Shown here: one piece after another, positions 18,077-43,549 of the stretch
Numbering within the stretch: the stretch's first letter is position 1
How the letters are laid out: each line of letters begins with the position of its first letter
From: Escherichia coli
GTDB lineage: Bacteria; Pseudomonadota; Gammaproteobacteria; Enterobacterales; Enterobacteriaceae
Strand: one strand, 5' to 3'
NCBI RefSeq assembly: GCF_016026235.1
Contig: NZ_CP065613.1
DNA length: 64,000 bases
The notes under the pieces: model-generated
What the model was told of the DNA's origin: nothing
Database searches by the model: none
The model's input: only the letters and a program-made list of their open reading frames with translations
Translations under genes and position numbers: made by a program

Positions 18077-18088
18077 GCCAGCGATGGC
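18077..18088. repeat. left copy of the 12-bp IS4 target-site duplication
   Basis: gccagcgatggc abuts the IS4 left inverted repeat. An identical copy is at 19515-19526. Confidence 0.9.
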
Positions 18089-19514
18089 TAATGCCGATCA
18101 GTTAAGGATCAGTTGACCGATCCAGTGGCTGTGTAAGAATCCGGAAACGCTCACTTGTTTCCGGATTTTTTTATGCACATTGGACAGGCTCTTGATCTGG
18201 TATCCCGTTACGATTCTCTGCGTAACCCACTGACTTCTCTGGGGGATTACCTCGACCCCGAACTCATCTCTCGTTGCCTTGCCGAATCAGGTACTGTAAC
18301 GCTACGCAAGCGCCGTCTTCCCCTCGAAATGATGGTCTGGTGTATTGTTGGCATGGCGCTTGAGCGTAAAGAACCTCTTCACCAGATTGTGAATCGCCTG
18401 GACATCATGCTGCCGGGCAATCGCCCCTTCGTTGCCCCCAGTGCCGTTATTCAGGCCCGCCAGCGCCTGGGAAGTGAGGCTGTCCGCCGCGTGTTCACGA
18501 AAACAGTGCAGCTCTGGCATAACGCCACGCCGCATCCGCACTGGTGCGGCCTGACCCTGCTGGCCATCGATGGTGTGTTCTGGCGCACACCGGATACACC
18601 AGAGAACGATGCAGCCTTCCCCCGCCAGACACATGCCGGGAACCCGGCGCTCTACCCGCAGGTCAAAATGGTCTGCCAGATGGAACTGACCAGCCATCTG
18701 CTGACGGCTGCAGCCTTCGGCACGATGAAGAACAGCGAAAATGAGCTTGCTGAGCAACTTATAGAACAAACCGGCGATAACACTCTGACGTTAATGGATA
18801 AAGGTTATTACTCACTGGGACTGTTAAATGCCTGGAGCCTGGCGGGAGAACACCGCCACTGGATGATACCTCTCAGAAAGGGAGCGCAATATGAAGAGCT
18901 CAGAAAACTGGGTAAAGGCGATCATCTGGTGAAGCTGAAAACCAGCCCGCAGGCACGAAAAAAGTGGCCGGGACTGGGAAATGAAGTGACAGCCCGCCTG
19001 CTGACCGTGACGCGCAAAGGAAAAGTCTGCCATCTGCTGACGTCGATGACGGACGCCATGCGCTTCCCCGGAGGAGAAATGGCGGATCTGTACAGTCATC
19101 GCTGGGAAATCGAACTGGGATACAGGGAGATAAAACAGACGATGCAACTGAGCAGGCTGACGCTGAGAAGTAAAAAGCCGGAGCTTGTGGAGCAAGAGCT
19201 GTGGGGTGTCTTACTGGCTTATAATCTGGTGAGATATCAGATGATTAAAATGGCGGAACATCTGAAAGGTTACTGGCCGAATCAACTGAGTTTCTCAGAA
19301 TCATGCGGAATGGTGATGAGAATGCTGATGACATTGCAGGGCGCTTCACCGGGACGTATACCGGAGCTGATGCGCGATTTTGCAAGTATGGGACAACTTG
19401 TGAAATTACCGACGAGAAGGGGAAGGGCCTTCCCGAGAGTGGTAAAGGAGAGGCCCTGGAAATACCCCACAGCCCCGAAAAAGAGCCAGTCAGTTGCTTA
19501 ACTGACTGGCATTA
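18089..19514 (+). mobile_element. insertion sequence IS4 (complete, 1426 bp)
   Basis: Terminal inverted repeats are TAATGCCGATCAGTTAAG and (reverse complement) TAATGCCAGTCAGTTAAG, matching at 16 of 18 positions. The 1426-bp length and 12-bp TSD match IS4, and it has a single DDE transposase ORF. Confidence 0.95.
18173..19501 (+). CDS. insG: IS4 transposase (InsG)
   Basis: 442 aa from [16 protein letters not shown]. It has the IS4-family YREK signature ([15 protein letters not shown]) and DDE context (LLAIDG, LMDKGY). Confidence 0.95.
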
Positions 19515-19526
19515 GCCAGCGATGGC
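19515..19526. repeat. right copy of the 12-bp IS4 target-site duplication
   Basis: gccagcgatggc is followed by aggttttttttt, the distal half of the original typA terminator. Confidence 0.9.
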
Positions 19527-22860: not shown

Positions 22861-23553
22861 TCAGAAGAAATACTTCGTCCCGATACGAATCTGGTTTTGC
22901 TCGCGGTGGTACGGTTCCACGTTGCGATCTAACCAGCGCAATTCAATATAGGGCAGCCAGTGCTCGTTAATGCGGTAACGGAAGGTGTTAGTGATTTCCC
23001 AGTGATGCTTCGTGCCATTGCCGCTATTGAAATCATTAATGTTATAAAAATAATGCGGCTCAAAGGTATATGAGAACTTATCGGTAATAATAAAGTTCCA
23101 GTAGTTGCCAATCTCGTAGCTGTCATTATTATCCAGATCACCGTTTAAATCGGTTGAGCTGTAGTTATTATGGTTAAAACGGTTGCGTACTGTCAGGTTA
23201 AACCACGGAGTAAATTTGTAGTTAACATCCAGATAAACAGCACCACCCGAACCGATACTCTTATCATTAATTAAGCCACCGGGCTGGATGGTTAATTTAT
23301 CGGTTGGTTTAAATAACGGATACCAGCCTTCAATTTCGTTATATCCATGTTTAAGTTCATCTTCTCGCTGAAAGGTGTAGGTATTGGTTAACATAATACC
23401 CGCGCCCATATCGAAGTTATAACCCACACGTAGCATAACCTCGCCCTGATCGGAGGCGAGATTATATGCCTCCCTGTTTTCGACGTATGCGCCAGCGAAT
23501 ACTGAGGCAGAGGTCAGAGAAGATAATAAAATTATTGCATTAATATTTTTCAT
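22861..23553 (-). CDS. ompL: KdgM-family outer-membrane oligosaccharide porin OmpL
   Basis: 230 aa from MKNINAIILLSSLTSASVFA (signal peptide), with beta-strand-rich sequence ending in the ...GTKYFF C-terminal Phe. The ORF-track start at 23619 is an extension. Confidence 0.9.
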   Translation of the reverse strand: MKNINAIILLSSLTSASVFAGAYVENREAYNLASDQGEVMLRVGYNFDMGAGIMLTNTYTFQREDELKHGYNEIEGWYPLFKPTDKLTIQPGGLINDKSIGSGGAVYLDVNYKFTPWFNLTVRNRFNHNNYSSTDLNGDLDNNDSYEIGNYWNFIITDKFSYTFEPHYFYNINDFNSGNGTKHHWEITNTFRYRINEHWLPYIELRWLDRNVEPYHREQNQIRIGTKYFF

Positions 23554-23619: not shown

Positions 23620-25023
23620 TTATAACGTTACGGAAGCCGTTTTTTCTTCTGTCGCCATCTCTTTATTTTTGCGTTGGTTGATTTCCTCAATAATCAACGC
23701 AAACCGTTTTTCATTGAGTGTGTAAAAGAATCCCATCGTCAATGCAGCAATAATTGCCAGTGCACAAGGCCAGATAAAAATGAGCTGACGCAAACCCTGT
23801 AATGTCGCATCACTTTGCGCGATGTTGGGAACATAACCGATTTGCGTCAGCATAATGCCTGGCAAGAAGCCAGCAAGTGCGGCAGAAATTTTACGAAAGA
23901 AGGTATAACCGGTATAAACAGAACCTTCGGCACGAATACCGGTTTTCCATTCACCGTAATCTACGGTATCTGGCACCAGTGCCCAGTTCAGGCTGTTTAC
24001 AAAGGCCGTGCCAAAAAAGGCGATACAAGAGAACATGACGAAAGTGAAAGAGTTACTTCCCCAGAAATAATTCAGGATATCACCCACTGCCCATAGCACC
24101 ATGCCAGCTAAATAAACCTGTTTTTTACCAAAACATTTTACAGTTAATGGCACCAGTAATACGCCGATGAGGATGCATCCCATACTGAAGAATCCCATCC
24201 ACGACAATAAATTAATATCATTCAGCACATACTGGGTGTAATAGACCTGAATCGCCAGTTTGATATTAAATGCCGCCAGGGTACACAAGTTAGCAATGCA
24301 TAAAACCAGCAATGGCGGATTCCGAAATATCGCGCAAAATGATTTGAGAATACTGGCTTTATGTCCGGTTGGTGCTGTGTCCACATAATGCTCTTTGACG
24401 CCTCTGTAGCACAGCATCATAAAAATAAAGCCACCAATGGAGAACATCAGTGCCGCACAGGCATAACCGACGGTTGAGTCAGAAAAAAGCGACTGCAACG
24501 GAATAAACGCCACGGTACAAATCAATAGCCCTATGGTTGCACCACCCTGGCGGTAAGCCGCGAGCTGCGCGCGCTCATTCGGGTTTTTAGTAATGGCTGG
24601 GATCATCGCACCATACGAGCAGTTCATCAGACTGTATGAAAGTCCAAACATCATAAACAGCGCGGTGGCAATCGTCGTTTTAACCGGCAAACTAAAAGTG
24701 GTGGCGATAAACTGGAGCGTTGCAATTAACGCCGCCGGAACCGCTGCGTATAAAATAAAGGGACGAAATTTGCCTTTAGGCCCAATATTTTTCCGCGAAT
24801 CGAGTAAAAATCCGGTGAGCATATCGGTAAACGCGGTAAAAAACTTCGCCACCAGAAAGATAATCCCGCCATAGTAAGCTGGCATCCCTAATTCATCGGT
24901 ATAAAATTTGAGGAGATACAGAGTACCGATGCTAAGCATTAAATTCGAACCAACGTCGCCCATACCATAGGCGATTTTTTCCCGCAGATTCAGTTTTAAT
25001 GTCAGTGGATTATGGTCAGACAT
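23620..25023 (-). CDS. yihO: GPH-family sugar:cation symporter YihO (sulfoquinovose transporter candidate)
   Basis: 467 aa from MSDHNPLTLK, with SD AAGGAG 5 nt upstream. It is a 12-TM protein and a paralog of YihP. Confidence 0.9.
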   Translation of the reverse strand: MSDHNPLTLKLNLREKIAYGMGDVGSNLMLSIGTLYLLKFYTDELGMPAYYGGIIFLVAKFFTAFTDMLTGFLLDSRKNIGPKGKFRPFILYAAVPAALIATLQFIATTFSLPVKTTIATALFMMFGLSYSLMNCSYGAMIPAITKNPNERAQLAAYRQGGATIGLLICTVAFIPLQSLFSDSTVGYACAALMFSIGGFIFMMLCYRGVKEHYVDTAPTGHKASILKSFCAIFRNPPLLVLCIANLCTLAAFNIKLAIQVYYTQYVLNDINLLSWMGFFSMGCILIGVLLVPLTVKCFGKKQVYLAGMVLWAVGDILNYFWGSNSFTFVMFSCIAFFGTAFVNSLNWALVPDTVDYGEWKTGIRAEGSVYTGYTFFRKISAALAGFLPGIMLTQIGYVPNIAQSDATLQGLRQLIFIWPCALAIIAALTMGFFYTLNEKRFALIIEEINQRKNKEMATEEKTASVTL

Positions 25024-25065: not shown

Positions 25066-26451
25066 TTACGCCGTGCGTTTACGGGCTTCTATTTCTTCAA
25101 CAATGCGGACATACATCTTCTCGTTCAGGCTGTAGAAGCAGCCCATCGCCACAATGGTGACTACCGCCAGTGCGCTTGGGTAGATGAAGATCAGCTGGCG
25201 CAACCCTTCAATGGTGTGGTCAGCCTGCGCCACGTTCGGCACATAACCGATTTGCGTCAGCATCCAGCCGGGGAAGAAACCAGCCAGCGCCTGAGACACT
25301 TTGCGAAAGAAGGTGAAGCCGGTGTAGACCGTTCCTTCCGAACGAACGCCGGTACGCCACTCGCCGTACTCGACGGTGTCGGAAACCAGCGCCCAGTTCA
25401 GGCTGTTAACAAACGCTGAGCCGAAGAATGCCAGGCAGGAGAACGCCACGAAGCTGACCGAACCGCCGCCGAAGAAATAGTTGAGCAGATCGCCCAGCAC
25501 CCAAATCAGTAGGCCGCCGATATAGACCTTCTTCTTACCAAAACGCCTGACTGCGCCAGGCATCAGGAACACACCGATGAAAATACAGCCCATGCTGAAA
25601 AATCCCATATATGACAACAGGATGGGATCGTTAAGCACGTACTGGGTGTAATAGACCTGAATGGCGAGCTTGACGTTAAACGCCCCTAAAGTGCAGAGGT
25701 TGGCAATGCACAAAATGAACAGTGGGCGGTTACCGGCAATTGCGCGGAAAGATTGCAACAGGCCTGGCTTTTGCGCCGGATTGGTAGGTTGGGTTTCGAC
25801 ATAACGCTCTTTCACGCCCGAATAGCAGATCCACATAAACAGCAGGCCAAACAGTGAAAACAGCGTGGCGGCGAAGATATAGCCAAGTTGTTGATTACCC
25901 TCGATAAGATTCATAACCGGCACGAATCCCACCGTGCACAGCAGCAGGCCCAGCGTAGCGCCGCCCTGACGCCATGCTGCCAGCGAGGCGCGTTCGTTGG
26001 GGTTTTTGGTAATGGCGGGAACCATTGCGCCGTAGGAGCAGTTCATCATGCTGAAAAACAGCCCGTAGAGCATAAACAGAATAGTGGCCATCACCGTTTT
26101 ACCAGTGACATCGAACGGTGTGCCGATAAAGTTAGCGATTGCCAATAAGGTGACCGGGAATGACGCGTACAAAATGAAAGGGCGGAACTTACCTTTCGGG
26201 CCAATCTTACGCCGGGAATCCAGCATGATGCCGGTTCCCATATCGGTAAAGGCGGTAAAGAATTTCGAGATCAAAAAGATAATGCCGCCATAGGTGCCAG
26301 GTAGCCCCAGAACGTCGGTATAAAACTTCAAAAGATAAAGCGTACCAATATCCAGCAGGATGTTAGAGGCCAGATCGCCGATACCGTAAGAGAGTTTCTC
26401 TTTAAAGGGCAGGCGCAAAGTTGCCGGATCTTCCGTTGTGATGTGACTCAT
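25066..26451 (-). CDS. yihP: GPH-family sugar:cation symporter YihP
   Basis: 461 aa from MSHITTEDPATL, with a GGAGA SD. It shows extensive identity to YihO (LLKFYTD.LG.P..YGGIIFL..KFFTAFTDM). Confidence 0.9.
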   Translation of the reverse strand: MSHITTEDPATLRLPFKEKLSYGIGDLASNILLDIGTLYLLKFYTDVLGLPGTYGGIIFLISKFFTAFTDMGTGIMLDSRRKIGPKGKFRPFILYASFPVTLLAIANFIGTPFDVTGKTVMATILFMLYGLFFSMMNCSYGAMVPAITKNPNERASLAAWRQGGATLGLLLCTVGFVPVMNLIEGNQQLGYIFAATLFSLFGLLFMWICYSGVKERYVETQPTNPAQKPGLLQSFRAIAGNRPLFILCIANLCTLGAFNVKLAIQVYYTQYVLNDPILLSYMGFFSMGCIFIGVFLMPGAVRRFGKKKVYIGGLLIWVLGDLLNYFFGGGSVSFVAFSCLAFFGSAFVNSLNWALVSDTVEYGEWRTGVRSEGTVYTGFTFFRKVSQALAGFFPGWMLTQIGYVPNVAQADHTIEGLRQLIFIYPSALAVVTIVAMGCFYSLNEKMYVRIVEEIEARKRTA

Positions 26452-26496: not shown

Positions 26497-28533
26497 TTAG
26501 ATGTTTTTTAACGAGGCGAACAGTGCAGCCCATTCGCTGTCGGCGCGATAAAAGACCGGCGGCTTGCCGATGGGCGCTTCAACAGTTATTTCTCCACCGT
26601 GGAAGGTTTCTCCGGTCCAGGCGTGGACCCAGTTATCCTCTGGCAGATAGAGCGTCCAGTCGCTACGACCTTCTTCGTGTACCGGAGCAACCAGAATGTC
26701 GCGACCTAACAGGTACTGATATTTCAGGGAATAGGTCTGCGCGTCGTCTTCGTAATGCAGGAACAGCGGGCGCATAACCGGCAGGCCGGACTTCGCATTC
26801 AGCGCGACGGCCTCTTTCAGGTAAGGTTTCAGGGTGGTGAAGACGGTGGTCATACGGGCGAAATGGGCGATGGTTTCCGCGTCGCCGTCAAACTGCCAGT
26901 TGTCGCTAGGACGGTTACCTTCGTGGGTGCGCATCATCGGCGTGAAGGCGCTGAAATCGCACCAGCGCAGCAGCAGCTCTTTGCTGCGCTTCATCTCAAA
27001 CAGGGTGGTATAACCGCCAATGTCGCTGTGATGCAGGCCATGTCCGGTCATTGCCAGAGATAGCGCCGCCGGGACAACCGACGCCAGGCCATCGTCCAGA
27101 CTCCAGTCCACGTTCTGGTCACCCGCCCACATCATGGTGGAGTATTTCTGGCTACCGGTAGAACCGGCGCGCATAAAGAAGAGGATCTCGCCGAGCTTGC
27201 CCGTTTCTTCAAGGGCTTCGTAGTTACATTTCGCCCACAGCGCGGGCCAGGCGTTATGCATAATTTCCGCGCTGATGCCGTTATGCAGGTACGTGTCGGT
27301 GGGCAGATACTCGCCGAAGTCAGCCATCCAGCCGCCGCAGCCGAGTTCAATCATGTTCTTTTTGATAACTTCCTTGAACTAGGCGTAGGCTTCCGGATTG
27401 GTGAGATCGACAACGCCGCCGTAGAACTCGCCAAACTCCACCAGATAGTCGCCACCGGCGACATCTTTTGCCAGATAACCGCGCTTTGCCGCCTCTTCGC
27501 AGAGATCTTTATCACTGGCAACATACGGGTTGATATAGGCAAGGAACTGCACGCCCTCTTTGTTCCACTGCTTGATACGCGAATCCAGTTGCGGGTAGTT
27601 TTCGCTGTTCCACTTCCAGTTCCACATCACGCGTTTGCCAAAAGAGGTCATACGAATACCGGACCAGTCCTGCGCCCAGATGCCGTTGACCTTCACGCCC
27701 GCGTTACGCATGGTGTCCAGTTTCTTCTGGCACACTTCCGTCCCGCCCTGAATGCCGAGCGTTACTCCGTCATAAATCCAGTCGGGCAGTTCTGGCTGGC
27801 GTCCCAGCAGGGCGGTTAATTTTTCCAGCAGGGAGATGTATGTGTCAGCACATTCAAAACGCAGCGTTGCTTTGTCTTCCCACAGCGCCAGTTCATGGTA
27901 TTCTGGGGCACTAAAGTCGAAGTTCATATAGCAACTGTTATCAACATGGCAGTAATACTTCTGCGTGCTGACAAACGTAGGCTGTGGGAAGAAAGTCCAG
28001 TAATAGTCGCCGCCCGCATTTTCTTTGCAGTCGGCCTGCCAGGTGACATAGGTTTGTTTGTTGCGACCAACGCCTTGTTCACTGGTCCATAGCGGGAACG
28101 GTTTGCCACGCAGATCGAAGTAGGAAAACTGTTCGCCGCAGCCGTAGATATGGTCCTCTGGTTGAGCGGCAAGGCGCAGCCAGATACGGTTGTGGTTAAG
28201 GTTGTCGTTTTGTAGTTCCAGCAATAAACGGCCCTGATCGTCGGCAGAGATATTCAGCGTGGCGCTAATGTCAGAACCACGGCTGAAATGGATTAACCAA
28301 CCATCCGGCGACTGGCTGACGATGGCGTCGGTAAGCGCAATTTTCTCCTGTAGTTTATCTTTAATGCTGAAATTGCCGCGGAACATATCGATATCCGCAA
28401 TACCTGAACCAATCCATAAACAAGGATTATCTTTGCTATGGGTTAAAATAAGACGCTGTTGAAAATGTAGGGTAAAACTGTCGTTATTCTGATGAAACTG
28501 AAAATCTGGTAATTGTGGGCGTGGCGTATCCAT
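26497..28533 (-). pseudogene. yihQ: sulfoquinovosidase YihQ (GH31) interrupted by an in-frame amber codon
   Basis: The two ORF-track pieces (384 aa and 285 aa) are in the same frame, and the full span is 679 codons. The only defect is TAG at 27379-27381 in the context ...NPEAYA*FKEVIKKNMIELG, where I recall Trp in K-12. The GH31 nucleophile motif WMADFGE lies downstream of the stop. Confidence 0.85.
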
Positions 28534-28641
28534 AAATAATCTCCATAGAGTATAAAGCTAATATTTCATGCCATCCTGTTGTTACAGGTTTCATTAATTA
28601 AAGAATGTGGTGCTGGTATAAATTAAAACCCGCATAAGTGA

Positions 28642-29517
28642 TTATTTACTTTCTTCAGCCCGGCGGATTGCCGCCACTTTTTTACCAAATGCCAGTTGCA
28701 GTATAACTAACAAGGTAAAAGGAGGCAGAAGCGCGGCAGCAGCGGGAATTCCCAGCGCGCCTTTTATCAACATAGAACCGGAGGCAATCAGCAACAAAAA
28801 GACCATCACACGGAACACTTTGACTGAAATGCGTTTATGCACATATTGTCCAACCAGTGAACCGAGGATCATGGTGGGAATACAAAACAGCACCAGTTTA
28901 AAGATAGAAACAGTCAAAATTCCGCTGGTCGCCAGCCCGCCGATCACCGCGATGTTGTTTGCGGTGAAGAAAGCGTTCAGAGTGCCACGAAATGCCGCCG
29001 GGCCTAAGTTACGCAGCATACCGTAGATAACCATCGGCGGTCCGTTGGTTGAAAACGCTGCCCCTAACGCTCCTGCCACAGCGCCGATAGGTGCGGCGAT
29101 CCAGTTGCGGTCATAAATCGGCAGGCGTGGAATAAACATACTGTAAAAGGAGTACAGGATAAGGAATCCGCCTAAGCCCACTTTCATAAAATGGTCGGGT
29201 AAATATGACAGCGCATATAAACCGACGGGTATTCCCAGAAACGAGAAAATAATCAGTACCATTGCCGATCGCCAATCCGTTTCTTTACGTGACAGCCAGG
29301 TGGCGTACAAGGCGGTCGCGGTGCCGACAATCACCGAGAGCGGAGTTGCCATTTTTACGGGGAGCATTAACGTGACGAGCGGCATGGTGGTTAAACCACC
29401 GCCAAATCCCGCGCATATCCCCACAAAGGTATAAAGAAACATTAACGCGATAACGATACATACCACGTTTGTTTCCAGCATGACCCCATCCGGTGAAAAT
29501 AACGTAAAAAAGTCCAT
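28642..29517 (-). CDS. TauE/SafE (TSUP) family anion permease, putative sulfite/organosulfonate exporter
   Basis: 291 aa, about 8 TM segments, two-repeat architecture with GFGGGLTTMP in the first half and GALGAAFSTNGPP in the second. It is co-oriented between yihR and yihQ. Confidence 0.7.
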   Translation of the reverse strand: MDFFTLFSPDGVMLETNVVCIVIALMFLYTFVGICAGFGGGLTTMPLVTLMLPVKMATPLSVIVGTATALYATWLSRKETDWRSAMVLIIFSFLGIPVGLYALSYLPDHFMKVGLGGFLILYSFYSMFIPRLPIYDRNWIAAPIGAVAGALGAAFSTNGPPMVIYGMLRNLGPAAFRGTLNAFFTANNIAVIGGLATSGILTVSIFKLVLFCIPTMILGSLVGQYVHKRISVKVFRVMVFLLLIASGSMLIKGALGIPAAAALLPPFTLLVILQLAFGKKVAAIRRAEESK

Positions 29518-29577
29518 GATATTCCCTGTTGTGTAAATACAACCCTAAACAATGATCTCGTTCTTTTCTTAATAAAA

Positions 29578-30480
29578 TTAATTGTGCTGCCCGTAAATAT
29601 TAAAAAACAGGCGGTGCGTTTTCCCTGGTTCCAGTAATAATAAGTCGAGACCTGAATTAAAGGCGTTAGGTGGGCAACTCATAGGTTCAACTGCCAGTCC
29701 CTGACGCTGTAATTTTTCGCCGCTATAAATCTGCACCCAGGGTTGATCGGAACAAAGGCTTACCGAAAGCGCCTGTTGTGGATGGGTAATGGTTATTTCC
29801 CACAGATCATTAGCGGTTTTAAAGGTGTGGTCGATTTTTGTCGCGGCTATTTTTTTCGCCTGCGTGAAATTTAAATCCAGCTCATCAACGTGGTGAAGCG
29901 TTGTCGGATTAGCGTGCTCATCGACGGCATAAACCTGGTTTGCCGGAAGCTGGAACAGATATTCATCAACAGATGTTAAGTTGCAGGTTAAATAAGGATG
30001 AATACCCACACCATAGGGTGCGGTCACAGTACCAATATTCTGACTTGCGATCTCAACGGAAAGACCCGTGCGTGCATTGAGCGAATAAACAACCTGCGAA
30101 GCCAGCATAAACGGATAGCCGTAACTGGGCGGCAGAAAAGCTGTCAGGGTAACGCTGGTGGCGGTTAATTCGCTGATTTGCCAGTCACGCCAGGCGAGCA
30201 GCCCATGAATAGCGGCTTTTGAACCATGTTCATTAATGGGTAACTGATATTCCTGCCCCTGATAGCGATAACAGCCGTTGGCGATCCGGTTCGGCCACGG
30301 AATAAGGACTTTGCCCAGATGTGCCAGCGGCATCTCTTCGGGTTTATGCGGAATAACTAAATGACAGCCCTGAAAGGTTAATTCAGCCAGACCTGCACCG
30401 ACGGTCACAATGGTCGCGTGATAATCCCCCGCGGCAAGTGAAACGGTCTGTCCACTGCAATGCATGTTGGTGATTTGCAT
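29578..30480 (-). CDS. yihR: aldose-1-epimerase family protein YihR (sulfoquinovose mutarotase)
   Basis: 300 aa, recognised as YihR, with a galactose-mutarotase-like fold. Confidence 0.85.
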   Translation of the reverse strand: MQITNMHCSGQTVSLAAGDYHATIVTVGAGLAELTFQGCHLVIPHKPEEMPLAHLGKVLIPWPNRIANGCYRYQGQEYQLPINEHGSKAAIHGLLAWRDWQISELTATSVTLTAFLPPSYGYPFMLASQVVYSLNARTGLSVEIASQNIGTVTAPYGVGIHPYLTCNLTSVDEYLFQLPANQVYAVDEHANPTTLHHVDELDLNFTQAKKIAATKIDHTFKTANDLWEITITHPQQALSVSLCSDQPWVQIYSGEKLQRQGLAVEPMSCPPNAFNSGLDLLLLEPGKTHRLFFNIYGQHN

Positions 30481-30500
30481 ACGAGGTACCTTTATTGAAT

Positions 30501-30535
30501 AACGACATACCCGGCGTGCAGCCTGATATGTCGTT
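30501..30535. other. intercistronic stem-loop between yihS and yihR
   Basis: A 9-bp perfect stem, aacgacata / tatgtcgtt, with a 17-nt loop. It is flanked by an A-run and a T-run. Confidence 0.4.
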
Positions 30536-30548
30536 TTTTGTTAGTCAG

Positions 30549-42117: not shown

Positions 42118-43026
<909 letters not shown>

Positions 43027-43549
43027 CCAGGAGATGCTCCTGCATGGCTTTCAGATATGCATTTTCTGCGCGAAGATAACGCAGCTCATTCTTCATCTCT
43101 TCCGGCGTCATGTTTCCCTCGTTTTCATGGGTATCATCAGAACGGGTCATGCTTTTCTCCTTCCTGCGCCTGATAAAGGCCTCATTACCAGATTTGCGGT
43201 AGCCTTTTATCCAGTTTTTAACCATGTTGTGGCTGGGAATGTTAAACCGGGCAGCTACCCGGGGTAGAGACTCAGAATGCCCGAGAGCATAAAGAACCAC
43301 GCAAAGTTTATCTTCAGGAGAATAGCTACGCTTGTGTCTGCAATCCAGTGCCTGAGGACCGTGAAGAAGAAAAAGATTAATCCAGTGTGAGAGGCTGGTG
43401 TGAGAAAGTTGAAAGAGTTTTGCCGTAGAAATGATGCCTGCATGACCGGCCAGGTAATGATTTACAGCGGCAAGTTTTACTTCAAATGAATGTTTCATAA
43501 ACTGCACCTTCAGATGTCAGATTATGTCCAACATTTGGGGTGCAGTTCA

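Follow-up and report, generated by a model that had tools for sequence, protein, structure and literature searches.

The 64-kb stretch of Escherichia coli DNA analyzed here (the window) carries a sulfo-EMP (yih) cassette in the order ompL-yihO-yihP-yihQ-tauE-yihR-yihS-yihT-yihU / yihV-csqR, collinear with the cassettes of K-12 and of E. coli FDAARGOS_943, the closest complete genome. The features of the locus are as follows.

26497..28533, minus strand: yihQ (sulfoquinovosidase, GH31), 678 codons, interrupted once; a pseudogene by sequence comparison
27379..27381, minus strand: codon 385, amber (TAG), with TGG (Trp385) as the ancestral state by orthologue comparison
27379..28533, minus strand: N-terminal ORF of 384 aa, comprising the N-terminal beta-sandwich and the first third of the catalytic barrel, without Asp405 and Asp472
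26497..27354, minus strand: 285-aa ORF in the same frame, 3′ of the stop and starting at Met394, comprising the remaining barrel with Asp405 and Asp472 and the C-terminal domain
27379..27383, plus strand: CTAGG, remnant of an ancestral CCAGG (Dcm CCWGG, also CCNGG) with the inner C at 27380 changed to T; CCAGG in FDAARGOS_943 and K-12
26906..26910, plus strand: second CCAGG>CTAGG change in yihQ, giving G543S; derived in the window lineage
27903..27907, plus strand: CCGGG>CTGGG (inner C of CCNGG), giving synonymous P210 CCG>CCA; derived in the window lineage
25066..26451, minus strand: yihP (MFS transporter), intact; it lies 45 nt 3′ of yihQ and has a GGAG Shine-Dalgarno sequence of its own
23620..25023, minus strand: yihO (MFS transporter), intact
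22861..23553, minus strand: ompL (KdgM-family porin), intact; interrupted by IS1 in FDAARGOS_943
28642..29517, minus strand: TauE/SafE-family gene between yihQ and yihR, intact; missing in K-12
29587..35488: yihR, yihS, yihT, and yihU (minus strand) and yihV and csqR (plus strand), the remainder of the sulfo-EMP cassette, all intact

The interrupted gene was identified as yihQ, in agreement with the sequence-only reading that preceded this analysis. Its frame scored 1598 bits against PDB 5AED by phmmer, with the match covering residues 1–678, and tblastn with K-12 YihQ gave 97.6% identity over the 678 aa, the same value as that obtained for PDB 5AED. Full-length similarity and the position within the yih cassette mark it as the orthologue of YihQ. 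At the nucleotide level, it is 99.8% identical to intact yihQ in many E. coli genomes, and only 4 nt separate it from the nearest intact allele, which supports the earlier view that the mutation is recent in evolution.

Translation of the minus strand of 26497–28533 gave a 679-codon frame with a single internal stop and a normal terminal stop. The plus strand reads CTA at 27379–27381, corresponding to TAG on the minus strand, and the context of the internal stop is ...PEAYA*FKEVIKKNMIELGCGGWMADFGEY.... Codon 385 is TGG (Trp) in K-12 MG1655, FDAARGOS_943, and the protein of PDB 5AED; this confirms the Trp codon that the first reading had given for K-12, and its conversion to TAG is a single G>A transition in the coding sense. 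Trp385 is kept in all solved sulfoquinovosidases, namely those of E. coli, 8R56, E. rectale 6PNR, and A. tumefaciens 5OHY. The frames of the orthologues run uninterrupted where yihQ of the window has its stop, as in a nonsense pseudogene.

The stop lies within the catalytic domain. The GH31 TIM-barrel model PF01055 is split by it, the N-terminal fragment matching profile positions 23–133 and the C-terminal fragment positions 146–314 of 328. The first reading had named, as one outcome that would overturn it, codon 385 being a domain boundary or a natural stop; this was rejected on the basis of the split and of the conservation of Trp385 in the orthologues. The motifs WMADFGE (Asp405) and WAGDQ (Asp472) are encoded only 3′ of the amber codon. 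Consequently, the 384-aa product ends before Asp405 and all residues beyond it, as had been proposed, and no single polypeptide encoded by the gene contains a complete (beta/alpha)8 barrel with both Asp405 and Asp472. We take Asp405 to be the nucleophile and Asp472 to be the acid/base of YihQ, the role of Asp472 being that reported by Speciale et al. (2016). Asp405 has been described as catalytic (PMC11968277).

The other genes of the cassette are in good order. Decay of the wider cassette was considered and rejected, every other yih-cassette gene in the window being intact. A polar effect of the TAG on yihP, yihO, and ompL, as suggested in the first reading, is possible. In a separate observation, csqR is split in the NCTC assembly by an A7/A8 homopolymer difference at window position 34955, and this split is absent from the window. 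Across E. coli, yihQ was found in 3909 of 5426 complete genomes, about 28% being without it; loss or degradation of the yih cassette is common in this species. Long and short forms of the cassette have been described, and the short form without yihQ is enriched in pathogenic strains (PMC12608037).

The base change at codon 385 falls at the inner cytosine of a CCAGG site, and all three window-specific changes in yihQ are C>T at C[C]NGG. Six CCWGG sites are present in yihQ, and at four of them, including codon 385, TGG>TAG is possible. Over the 64 kb, 9 of the 28 SNPs that distinguish the window from the nearest genome lie at CCNGG inner cytosines, which make up 0.9% of positions (P for at least eight, 1.5e-10). 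Among these CCNGG-site SNPs, six or seven are at CCSGG, sites that are untouched by Dcm. The nearest genome carries a 5.8-kb ColE1-type plasmid encoding a 379-aa protein with an HTH and a C5-methyltransferase, which is M.SsoII-like, together with an endonuclease nearly identical to R.Ecl18kI (E = 1e-203); the window itself contains neither dcm nor an SsoII/Ecl18kI-type plasmid. Enzymes of the SsoII/Ecl18kI type are specific for CCNGG (PMC6100179, PMC2577355). Dcm sites are subject to very-short-patch repair by Vsr (PMC2715241), and amber hotspots at Dcm CCAGG sites go back to Coulondre (1978), as cited in PMC12606429. The SNP spectrum suggests that a plasmid-borne CCNGG methyltransferase of the SsoII/Ecl18kI type probably also methylates the cytosine at codon 385 in this clade, and this small plasmid, through its restriction-modification system, seems to be a local mutator, with about a third of the clade SNPs over the 64 kb attributable to it.

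Truncated YihQ proteins were also predicted for ten Trp>stop changes at Dcm and non-Dcm codons, and all ten exist. They were found in 7–21 contigs for Dcm sites and 1–41 contigs for non-Dcm sites, so that truncations at Dcm sites were no more common than W149* (41 contigs) and W626* (11 contigs), both at non-Dcm codons; these counts reflect clonal sampling.

The identical TGG>TAG change was found on at least three divergent yihQ haplotypes, namely the window type, that of E. coli ERL04-3476, and haplotype L014. In ERL04-3476 (NZ_CP032808.1, D8Z68_RS27645), codon 385 is TAG, and the RefSeq pseudogene note reads "internal stop". Its yihQ has the same codon-385 change as the window, with 100% identity over the surrounding 81 bases, but lies on an O157-like background, with 15 nt differences in yihQ and approximately 1.4% divergence across the locus. 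ERL04-3476 scores like O157 genomes and is one base apart from them over 20 kb; because no other member of this otherwise identical set of genomes has the change, its W385* represents an independent event. Between the TAG-bearing L014 allele and that of the window there are 99 nt differences, spread over both sides of the stop, and the intact alleles nearest to L014 differ from it by the TAG alone. A further group (L004) shares with the window the TAG as the sole derived marker, and it may represent a fourth origin of W385* or a recombinant carrying an approximately 4-kb block (26500–30500). The haplotype comparisons thus indicate that the hotspot mutation at codon 385 arose independently in other E. 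coli lineages. Neither the recurrence in unrelated lineages nor the origin at a presumably methylated CCWGG/CCNGG site had been noticed in the sequence-only reading.

The inner-cytosine C>T change, its recurrence in independent lineages, and the excess of changes of the same class elsewhere in the 64 kb together characterize codon 385 as a mutational hotspot. In the mechanism that we propose, the inner cytosine of the CCAGG/CCTGG site would be 5-methylated by Dcm, and probably also by the plasmid-borne CCNGG methyltransferase of the SsoII/Ecl18kI type, a methylation that we infer for this strain. Deamination of 5-methylcytosine to thymine would then produce the plus-strand C>T change, which reads as G>A in the coding sense, and convert Trp385 (TGG) to amber (TAG). 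Translation would end after 384 residues, within the GH31 (beta/alpha)8 barrel and before Asp405 and Asp472, and with the catalytic barrel cut at this point, no active sulfoquinovosidase would be expected. We consider it very probable that yihQ of the window lineage is a recent pseudogene that arose by C>T mutation at a methylated CCAGG hotspot, encodes no active enzyme, and has counterparts that arose by the same mutation elsewhere.

Among the alternatives, the one that survives best is that loss of yihQ is positively selected in host-adapted or pathogenic lineages, the recurrence of W385* then reflecting selection as much as mutation bias. This agrees with the presence of the same null mutation on at least three haplotypes, the existence of many other truncating yihQ alleles, and the higher frequency of the short, yihQ-less cassette in pathogenic strains (PMC12608037). 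The closest relative is also IS-rich, and on a large plasmid it has Shigella-type IS elements and a pseudogene for an IpaH-like NEL E3 ligase. However, W385* is rare: for the two contexts checked, it was found in 1 of the 620 complete RefSeq genomes in which the codon has window-type flanking sequence, and in none with the L014-type context. Moreover, a known type of mutational hotspot suffices to explain the recurrence, and the remaining cassette genes in the window are undamaged. Adaptive loss is therefore unlikely as an account that would displace the hotspot, and selection for loss could, besides mutation bias, be partly behind the recurrence.

It is appreciably less probable that yihQ is still functional, either by read-through or suppression of the amber codon or by reinitiation at Met394 to give an active split barrel. 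The 285-codon downstream frame is open, its in-frame ATG (Met394) lies 24 nt past the amber codon, the other cassette genes are all intact, and the clone that has kept the allele was sampled many times. The open frame is, however, expected in any case because the mutation is young, with only 4 nt of difference from the nearest intact allele. The only Shine-Dalgarno-like element before Met394 is AAGGA, located 15–16 nt upstream of the ATG and outside the usual spacing; from this spacing, the 285-aa ORF is probably untranslated or poorly translated, and reinitiation at a low level, or natural read-through of the UAG, may occur. The fragment would be without the N-terminal domain and the beginning of the barrel, the break being inside the catalytic barrel and not between domains. 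The 64-kb window contains no tRNA gene and hence no suppressor tRNA, and the orthologues have Trp at codon 385, unlike what would be seen with programmed recoding or a suppressed amber codon. The identical change in ERL04-3476 is, in addition, called a pseudogene by RefSeq.

Changes that accumulated after the stop also bear on this point. The first reading had stated that the downstream part carries no further lesions and had raised continued selection as one explanation. The statement holds for frameshifts and stop codons, which are absent, but not for amino acid changes, since G543S (window position 26907) is a derived nonsynonymous change in the window lineage. Of the lineage-specific changes 3′ of the stop, 3 are nonsynonymous and 0 synonymous (n = 3, with G543S at a hotspot), against synonymous-to-nonsynonymous ratios of 31:8 and 43:9 in pairs of intact alleles. 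For these three changes, one of them at a hotspot, the 3:0 pattern has P = 0.003–0.017 under omega 0.05–0.1, compared with 0.47 if neutral. The direction of this pattern favors a relaxation of constraint on the downstream part over its continued selection. The specific form in which both halves of YihQ are made by reinitiation at Met394 and associate noncovalently into an active split (beta/alpha)8 barrel, with the frame under selection, is more improbable still.

The allele itself is real. W385* is fixed in a repeatedly sequenced clone, the exact 384-aa product being present in 35 index blocks and on at least 21 contigs, which come from separate assemblies and independent sequencing runs. The NCTC long-read assembly GCA_900449985.1 carries the TAG allele and matches the window at 99.995% identity across 21 kb; in that assembly, the 384-aa product corresponds to NCBI STM03236.1, and the 285-aa ORF is annotated separately as STM03240.1. 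Another NCBI assembly and Logan runs with the 384-aa product, including several independent short-read runs, were also found, the runs being 99.98–100% identical to the window. An exact-pattern scan with the TAG-bearing 41-mer gave no match among GTDB species representatives, which do not include the genome of the window. The suspicion, raised at the outset, of a sequencing or assembly error with TGG as the true codon and yihQ intact can be set aside with near certainty: although a single base differs in an otherwise clean frame and the related assembly L005 shows a likely homopolymer error in csqR, the substitution is at a non-homopolymer site, which is atypical of platform errors, and the identical TAG and product recur across these independent long- and short-read data.

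Given the recent-pseudogene reading, the lineage would be expected to use free sulfoquinovose (SQ) and to leave SQ-glycerol and SQDG uncleaved. The earlier prediction that free SQ but not SQ glycosides could be used is thus a reasonable one, the remaining pathway genes being intact. In annotation and phenotype prediction, the lineage should be scored as sulfoquinovosidase-negative with the rest of the sulfo-EMP pathway kept, and it would then rely on free SQ released by other gut bacteria. The putative mutator plasmid bears on dating and homoplasy filtering in outbreak phylogenies, as well as on pseudogene formation in IS-rich, Shigella-like E. coli. W385* itself represents gene loss of an ordinary and recurrent type, by a mechanism that is already known. 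It provides a clean natural example of that textbook mechanism, with an amber codon arising at a presumably methylated CCWGG site repeatedly at the same codon in unrelated E. coli.

Compared with K-12 YihQ (PDB 5AED, 5AEG, and 5OHT), which represents the same gene at the same locus in the same cassette, the window has TAG in place of TGG at codon 385, so that the polypeptide stops before Asp405 and Asp472, and it also differs by G543S. The short yih cassette (yihTUVW), found in E. coli Nissle 1917 and many pathogenic strains (PMC12608037), represents another route to sulfoquinovosidase loss; there, a deletion or rearrangement removed ompL-yihOPQRS, whereas in the window a single base changed and the other genes are intact. 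A mechanistic parallel is provided by the amber hotspots described in lacI at Dcm sites (Coulondre, Miller, Farabaugh, and Gilbert, 1978), where G:C>A:T changes occur at the inner cytosine of CC(A/T)GG, as in yihQ. In yihQ, however, a Trp codon was struck via the opposite strand (TGG>TAG) instead of CAG>TAG, and the change occurred in natural isolates with presumed methylation of the site, whereas lacI was a laboratory reporter. Methyltransferase-induced hypermutation in natural populations has been reported by Cherry (2018, J Bacteriol), as cited in PMC10710837 and PMC10333322; there, as in the window clade, C>T changes at the base methylated within a restriction-modification motif are in excess in particular lineages. 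With respect to the SsoII/Ecl18kI-type plasmid systems, the plasmid was seen in the closest genome only and may also be carried by the strain of the window.

The plus strand at 27379–27381 reads C-T-A (context ...ttgaac/tagg...), which corresponds to TAG on the minus strand. Translation of the yihQ region (26497–28533, minus strand) yielded 678 sense positions, the usual terminal stop, and a single internal stop in the context ...DLTNPEAYA*FKEVIKKNMIELGCGGWMADFGEY.... Two partial reading frames were present in the ORF list:

27379–28533, minus strand, N-terminal ORF of 384 amino acids
26497–27354, minus strand, C-terminal ORF of 285 amino acids starting from Met394

Among 5426 complete E. coli genomes, 3909 have an annotated yihQ (sulfoquinovosidase gene) that this frame matched, at up to 99.8% identity. 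K-12 YihQ aligned over all 678 residues (97.6% identity), and the crystal-structure sequence 5AED aligned end to end (1598 bits). K-12, as the sequence-only reading had stated, and the closest intact allele both have TGG at codon 385, and 5AED has Trp there; this Trp is also kept in the other solved sulfoquinovosidases 8R56, 6PNR (E. rectale), and 5OHY (A. tumefaciens). The window sequence, translation, and ORF list also bore out the coordinates, sequence context, and ORF lengths of that reading; the yihQ stop is real and was correctly described.

The stop cuts the GH31 TIM-barrel model of Pfam in two, with the N-terminal fragment covering profile positions 23–133 and the C-terminal fragment 146–314 of 328. 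Codon 385 is neither a natural stop nor a domain boundary. Both WMADFGE (Asp405) and WAGDQ (Asp472) are encoded solely 3′ of the stop, so that the truncated product lacks the WMADFGE Asp and everything downstream, as had been proposed. Asp472 is reportedly catalytic, according to Speciale et al. in 2016. Asp405 is a catalytic residue (PMC11968277). On its own, the 285-aa fragment has neither the N-terminal domain nor the first third of the barrel. The strain would be expected to have lost cleavage of sulfoquinovose (SQ) glycosides and to have kept the free-SQ pathway.

The exact 384-aa product was found by identity look-up in 35 index blocks and at least 21 contigs. In the NCTC assembly GCA_900449985.1, the two yihQ halves are deposited as separate proteins (STM03236.1 and STM03240.1, "putative glycosyl hydrolase [Escherichia coli]"), and this locus was 99.995% identical to the window across 21 kb, the one difference being the length of an A7/A8 homopolymer in csqR. 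A second NCBI assembly also carried the product, and the remaining carriers came from several independent sequencing runs, two of them 99.98% and 100% identical to the window. The recurrence of the TAG product across these contigs, separate assemblies, and runs effectively rules out a sequencing error, one of the origins considered earlier. These repeated near-identical sequences indicate that the window comes from an E. coli clone sequenced many times over, with the TAG every time. The clone itself was not found among the complete RefSeq E. coli genomes, the nearest of which, FDAARGOS_943, was approximately 99.95% identical over the full 64 kb, differed mainly by IS insertions, and has TGG at codon 385. 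At window position 34955, the extra base in the A7 run of the NCTC assembly splits csqR into ORFs of 172 and 95 amino acids, probably a long-read homopolymer error; csqR of the window is intact.

The background is IS-rich and Shigella/EIEC-like. Between bipA/typA and yihL, an insertion of approximately 1.4 kb (18088–19515), missing from K-12 and FDAARGOS_943, carries a gene with IS4 transposase domains (Nterm_IS4 and DDE_Tnp_1) in the matching NCTC locus. A segment of approximately 2 kb between fabY (yiiD) and yiiE (38947–40994), not present in K-12, contains a transposase and gene fragments, and an IS3-family element adjoins yiiF and fdhE (about 42150–43498). In this region, FDAARGOS_943 has three more IS1 copies, located in ompL, near yiiG, and within the 2-kb segment. 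Positions 1–50000 of its 155-kb IncFII plasmid (NZ_CP065616.1) contain a truncated NEL-type (IpaH-like) E3 ubiquitin ligase gene, phoC, ISSfl3/ISSso6/IS629-type elements, and an F4(K88)-like fimbrial operon, a possible sign of a lineage linked to an invasion plasmid or to pathogens in some other way. Between yihQ and yihR, the window has a TauE/SafE-family (sulfite/sulfonate exporter-like) gene (28642–29517); K-12 has only a gap of approximately 200 nt at this site, and the gene was found in most non-K-12 loci fetched.

Loss of yihQ is frequent in the species. The gene is absent from about 28% of complete E. coli genomes, and the short yihTUVW cassette is widespread and enriched in pathogens (PMC12608037). 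Truncated YihQ forms were numerous in the protein collection (P0003, P0010, P0012, P0014, P0031, P0046–P0051, and P0065), including stops, frameshifts (393 and 466 amino acids), and Trp-to-stop changes at every Trp position tested. A 314-aa form occurred in 23 contigs, complete genomes among them, W149* in 41 contigs, and W165* in complete genomes. In the window, yihQ is a pseudogene of an ordinary kind, made by a recent nonsense mutation that is fixed in the lineage, and RefSeq already lists the same allele as a pseudogene; the present analysis adds its probable origin at a methylated CCWGG/CCNGG cytosine, its recurrence on unrelated haplotypes, and a substitution pattern (n = 3) that speaks against continued selection.

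Neither a frameshift nor a further stop was found 3′ of the TAG in the window frame, as the sequence-only reading had stated. An open frame is expected of a young lesion because the allele is just 4 nt from the nearest intact one, a distance that fits the very recent mutation also proposed there. The alternative of continued selection fared worse: downstream of the stop, the changes particular to TAG-bearing sequences were G543S, N540K, and V564I, three nonsynonymous and none clearly synonymous, with one of the three at a hotspot. In the same part, intact alleles differed at 31 synonymous and 8 nonsynonymous codons (K-12) or 43 and 9 (L014 type). Three of three nonsynonymous changes have a probability of 0.47 if neutral and 0.003–0.017 at omega 0.05–0.1, which, with n = 3 and one change at a hotspot, favours relaxed constraint on the downstream part, as far as sequence comparison goes. 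Upstream changes were unusable for this comparison because the look-up demanded an identical 384-aa product.

No tRNA gene, and so no candidate amber suppressor, was present within the 64-kb window. The first in-frame ATG (Met394) lies 24 nt 3′ of the stop, preceded only by AAGGA as a Shine-Dalgarno (SD)-like element 15–16 nt upstream (−5.4 kcal/mol). In front of the native starts of yihQ and yihP, GGAG stands at about 7 nt (−6.4 kcal/mol). De novo initiation at Met394 should therefore be poor. Termination-reinitiation there may occur, and it is very improbable that it would yield a working two-piece enzyme. yihP begins 45 nt past yihQ and has an SD of its own. With a C-rich, G-poor stretch 480–560 nt 3′ of the TAG, Rho-dependent polarity on the downstream genes is conceivable; a separate promoter for yihQ has been suggested (PMC5816610).

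The same TAG was found on other haplotypes. ERL04-3476, the one complete genome with the identical TAG among those that share the window-type sequence around the codon, has yihQ annotated in RefSeq as a pseudogene with an "internal stop". Over 20 kb, its score equalled that of a block of O157 genomes plus one additional matching base, which indicates a singleton event on a different background. Contig L014, traced through another 384-aa variant from the protein collection, has the same TAG in an allele 99 nt from that of the window (42 of the differences are upstream of the stop, 57 downstream). By its bit score, L014 is apparently one base from the nearest intact alleles of complete genomes, and we take this base to be the TAG; the haplotype with TAG was not found among complete genomes. 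In contig L004 and its relatives, the flanks are approximately 2% divergent and a block of approximately 4 kb around yihQ, including the TAG, is nearly identical to the window, which could reflect a fourth origin or recombination of the block; the yihQ comparison yielded no linked derived marker to tell these apart. Three short contigs from unrelated samples (L015 at 2636, L016 at 1480, and L017 at 1371–1373) terminate exactly at yihQ codon 384/385, one with the end ...GCCTG. It seems that assembly graphs break at this base, as they would if one sample held both G and A variants, again a sign that the hotspot is polymorphic.

The ancestral coding sequence GCC TGG includes CCTGG (CCAGG on the plus strand), and the inner C of the plus-strand pentamer has changed to T. 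The lacI amber hotspots of Coulondre and colleagues lie at Dcm sites, where 5-methylcytosine deaminates to thymine (PMC12606429), and Vsr repairs such deamination only in part (PMC2715241). Six CCWGG sites occur in yihQ, and Trp-to-TAG changes are possible at four. The other two yihQ changes relative to the nearest intact allele were likewise C>T at the inner C of plus-strand CCNGG:

26907, CCAGG, G543S
27904, CCGGG, synonymous change at P210

Over the whole window, 28 SNPs separated the window from FDAARGOS_943. Nine of them, all transitions, were at CCNGG inner cytosines (10072, 13567, 24598, 26907, 27380, 27904, 38145, 42188, and 58287), a class that accounts for 0.9% of positions (P(≥8) = 1.5e-10, assuming uniform placement). 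With outgroups, five of the nine were placed on the window branch and three on the FDAARGOS branch, with one unpolarised; the majority of the nine were at CCSGG, a motif that Dcm leaves unmethylated. This pattern, present on both branches, is the trace that a C5-methyltransferase specific for CCNGG would leave as a local mutator.

A candidate methylase was present in the relative FDAARGOS_943, whose 5.8-kb ColE1-type plasmid (NZ_CP065617.1; Rop, MobC, and MbeA) carries a divergent methylase/endonuclease gene pair at 406–2572. The clade probably carries, or once carried, such an enzyme, which would increase the number of C>T changes at CCNGG and account for the yihQ stop as one of them. Hypermutation by restriction-modification methyltransferases in natural populations has been described (Cherry 2018, as cited in PMC10710837 and PMC10333322). 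The methylase product consists of 379 amino acids with an N-terminal HTH and a C5-methyltransferase domain, and the endonuclease matched R.Ecl18kI (PDB 2FQZ) across all 305 residues (E = 1e-203). In SsoII/Ecl18kI systems, the inner C of CCNGG is the base that the methylase modifies (PMC6100179; PMC2577355). The plasmid pair resembles the SsoII/Ecl18kI systems in architecture and size and, by homology, is a predicted CCNGG restriction-modification system of this type.
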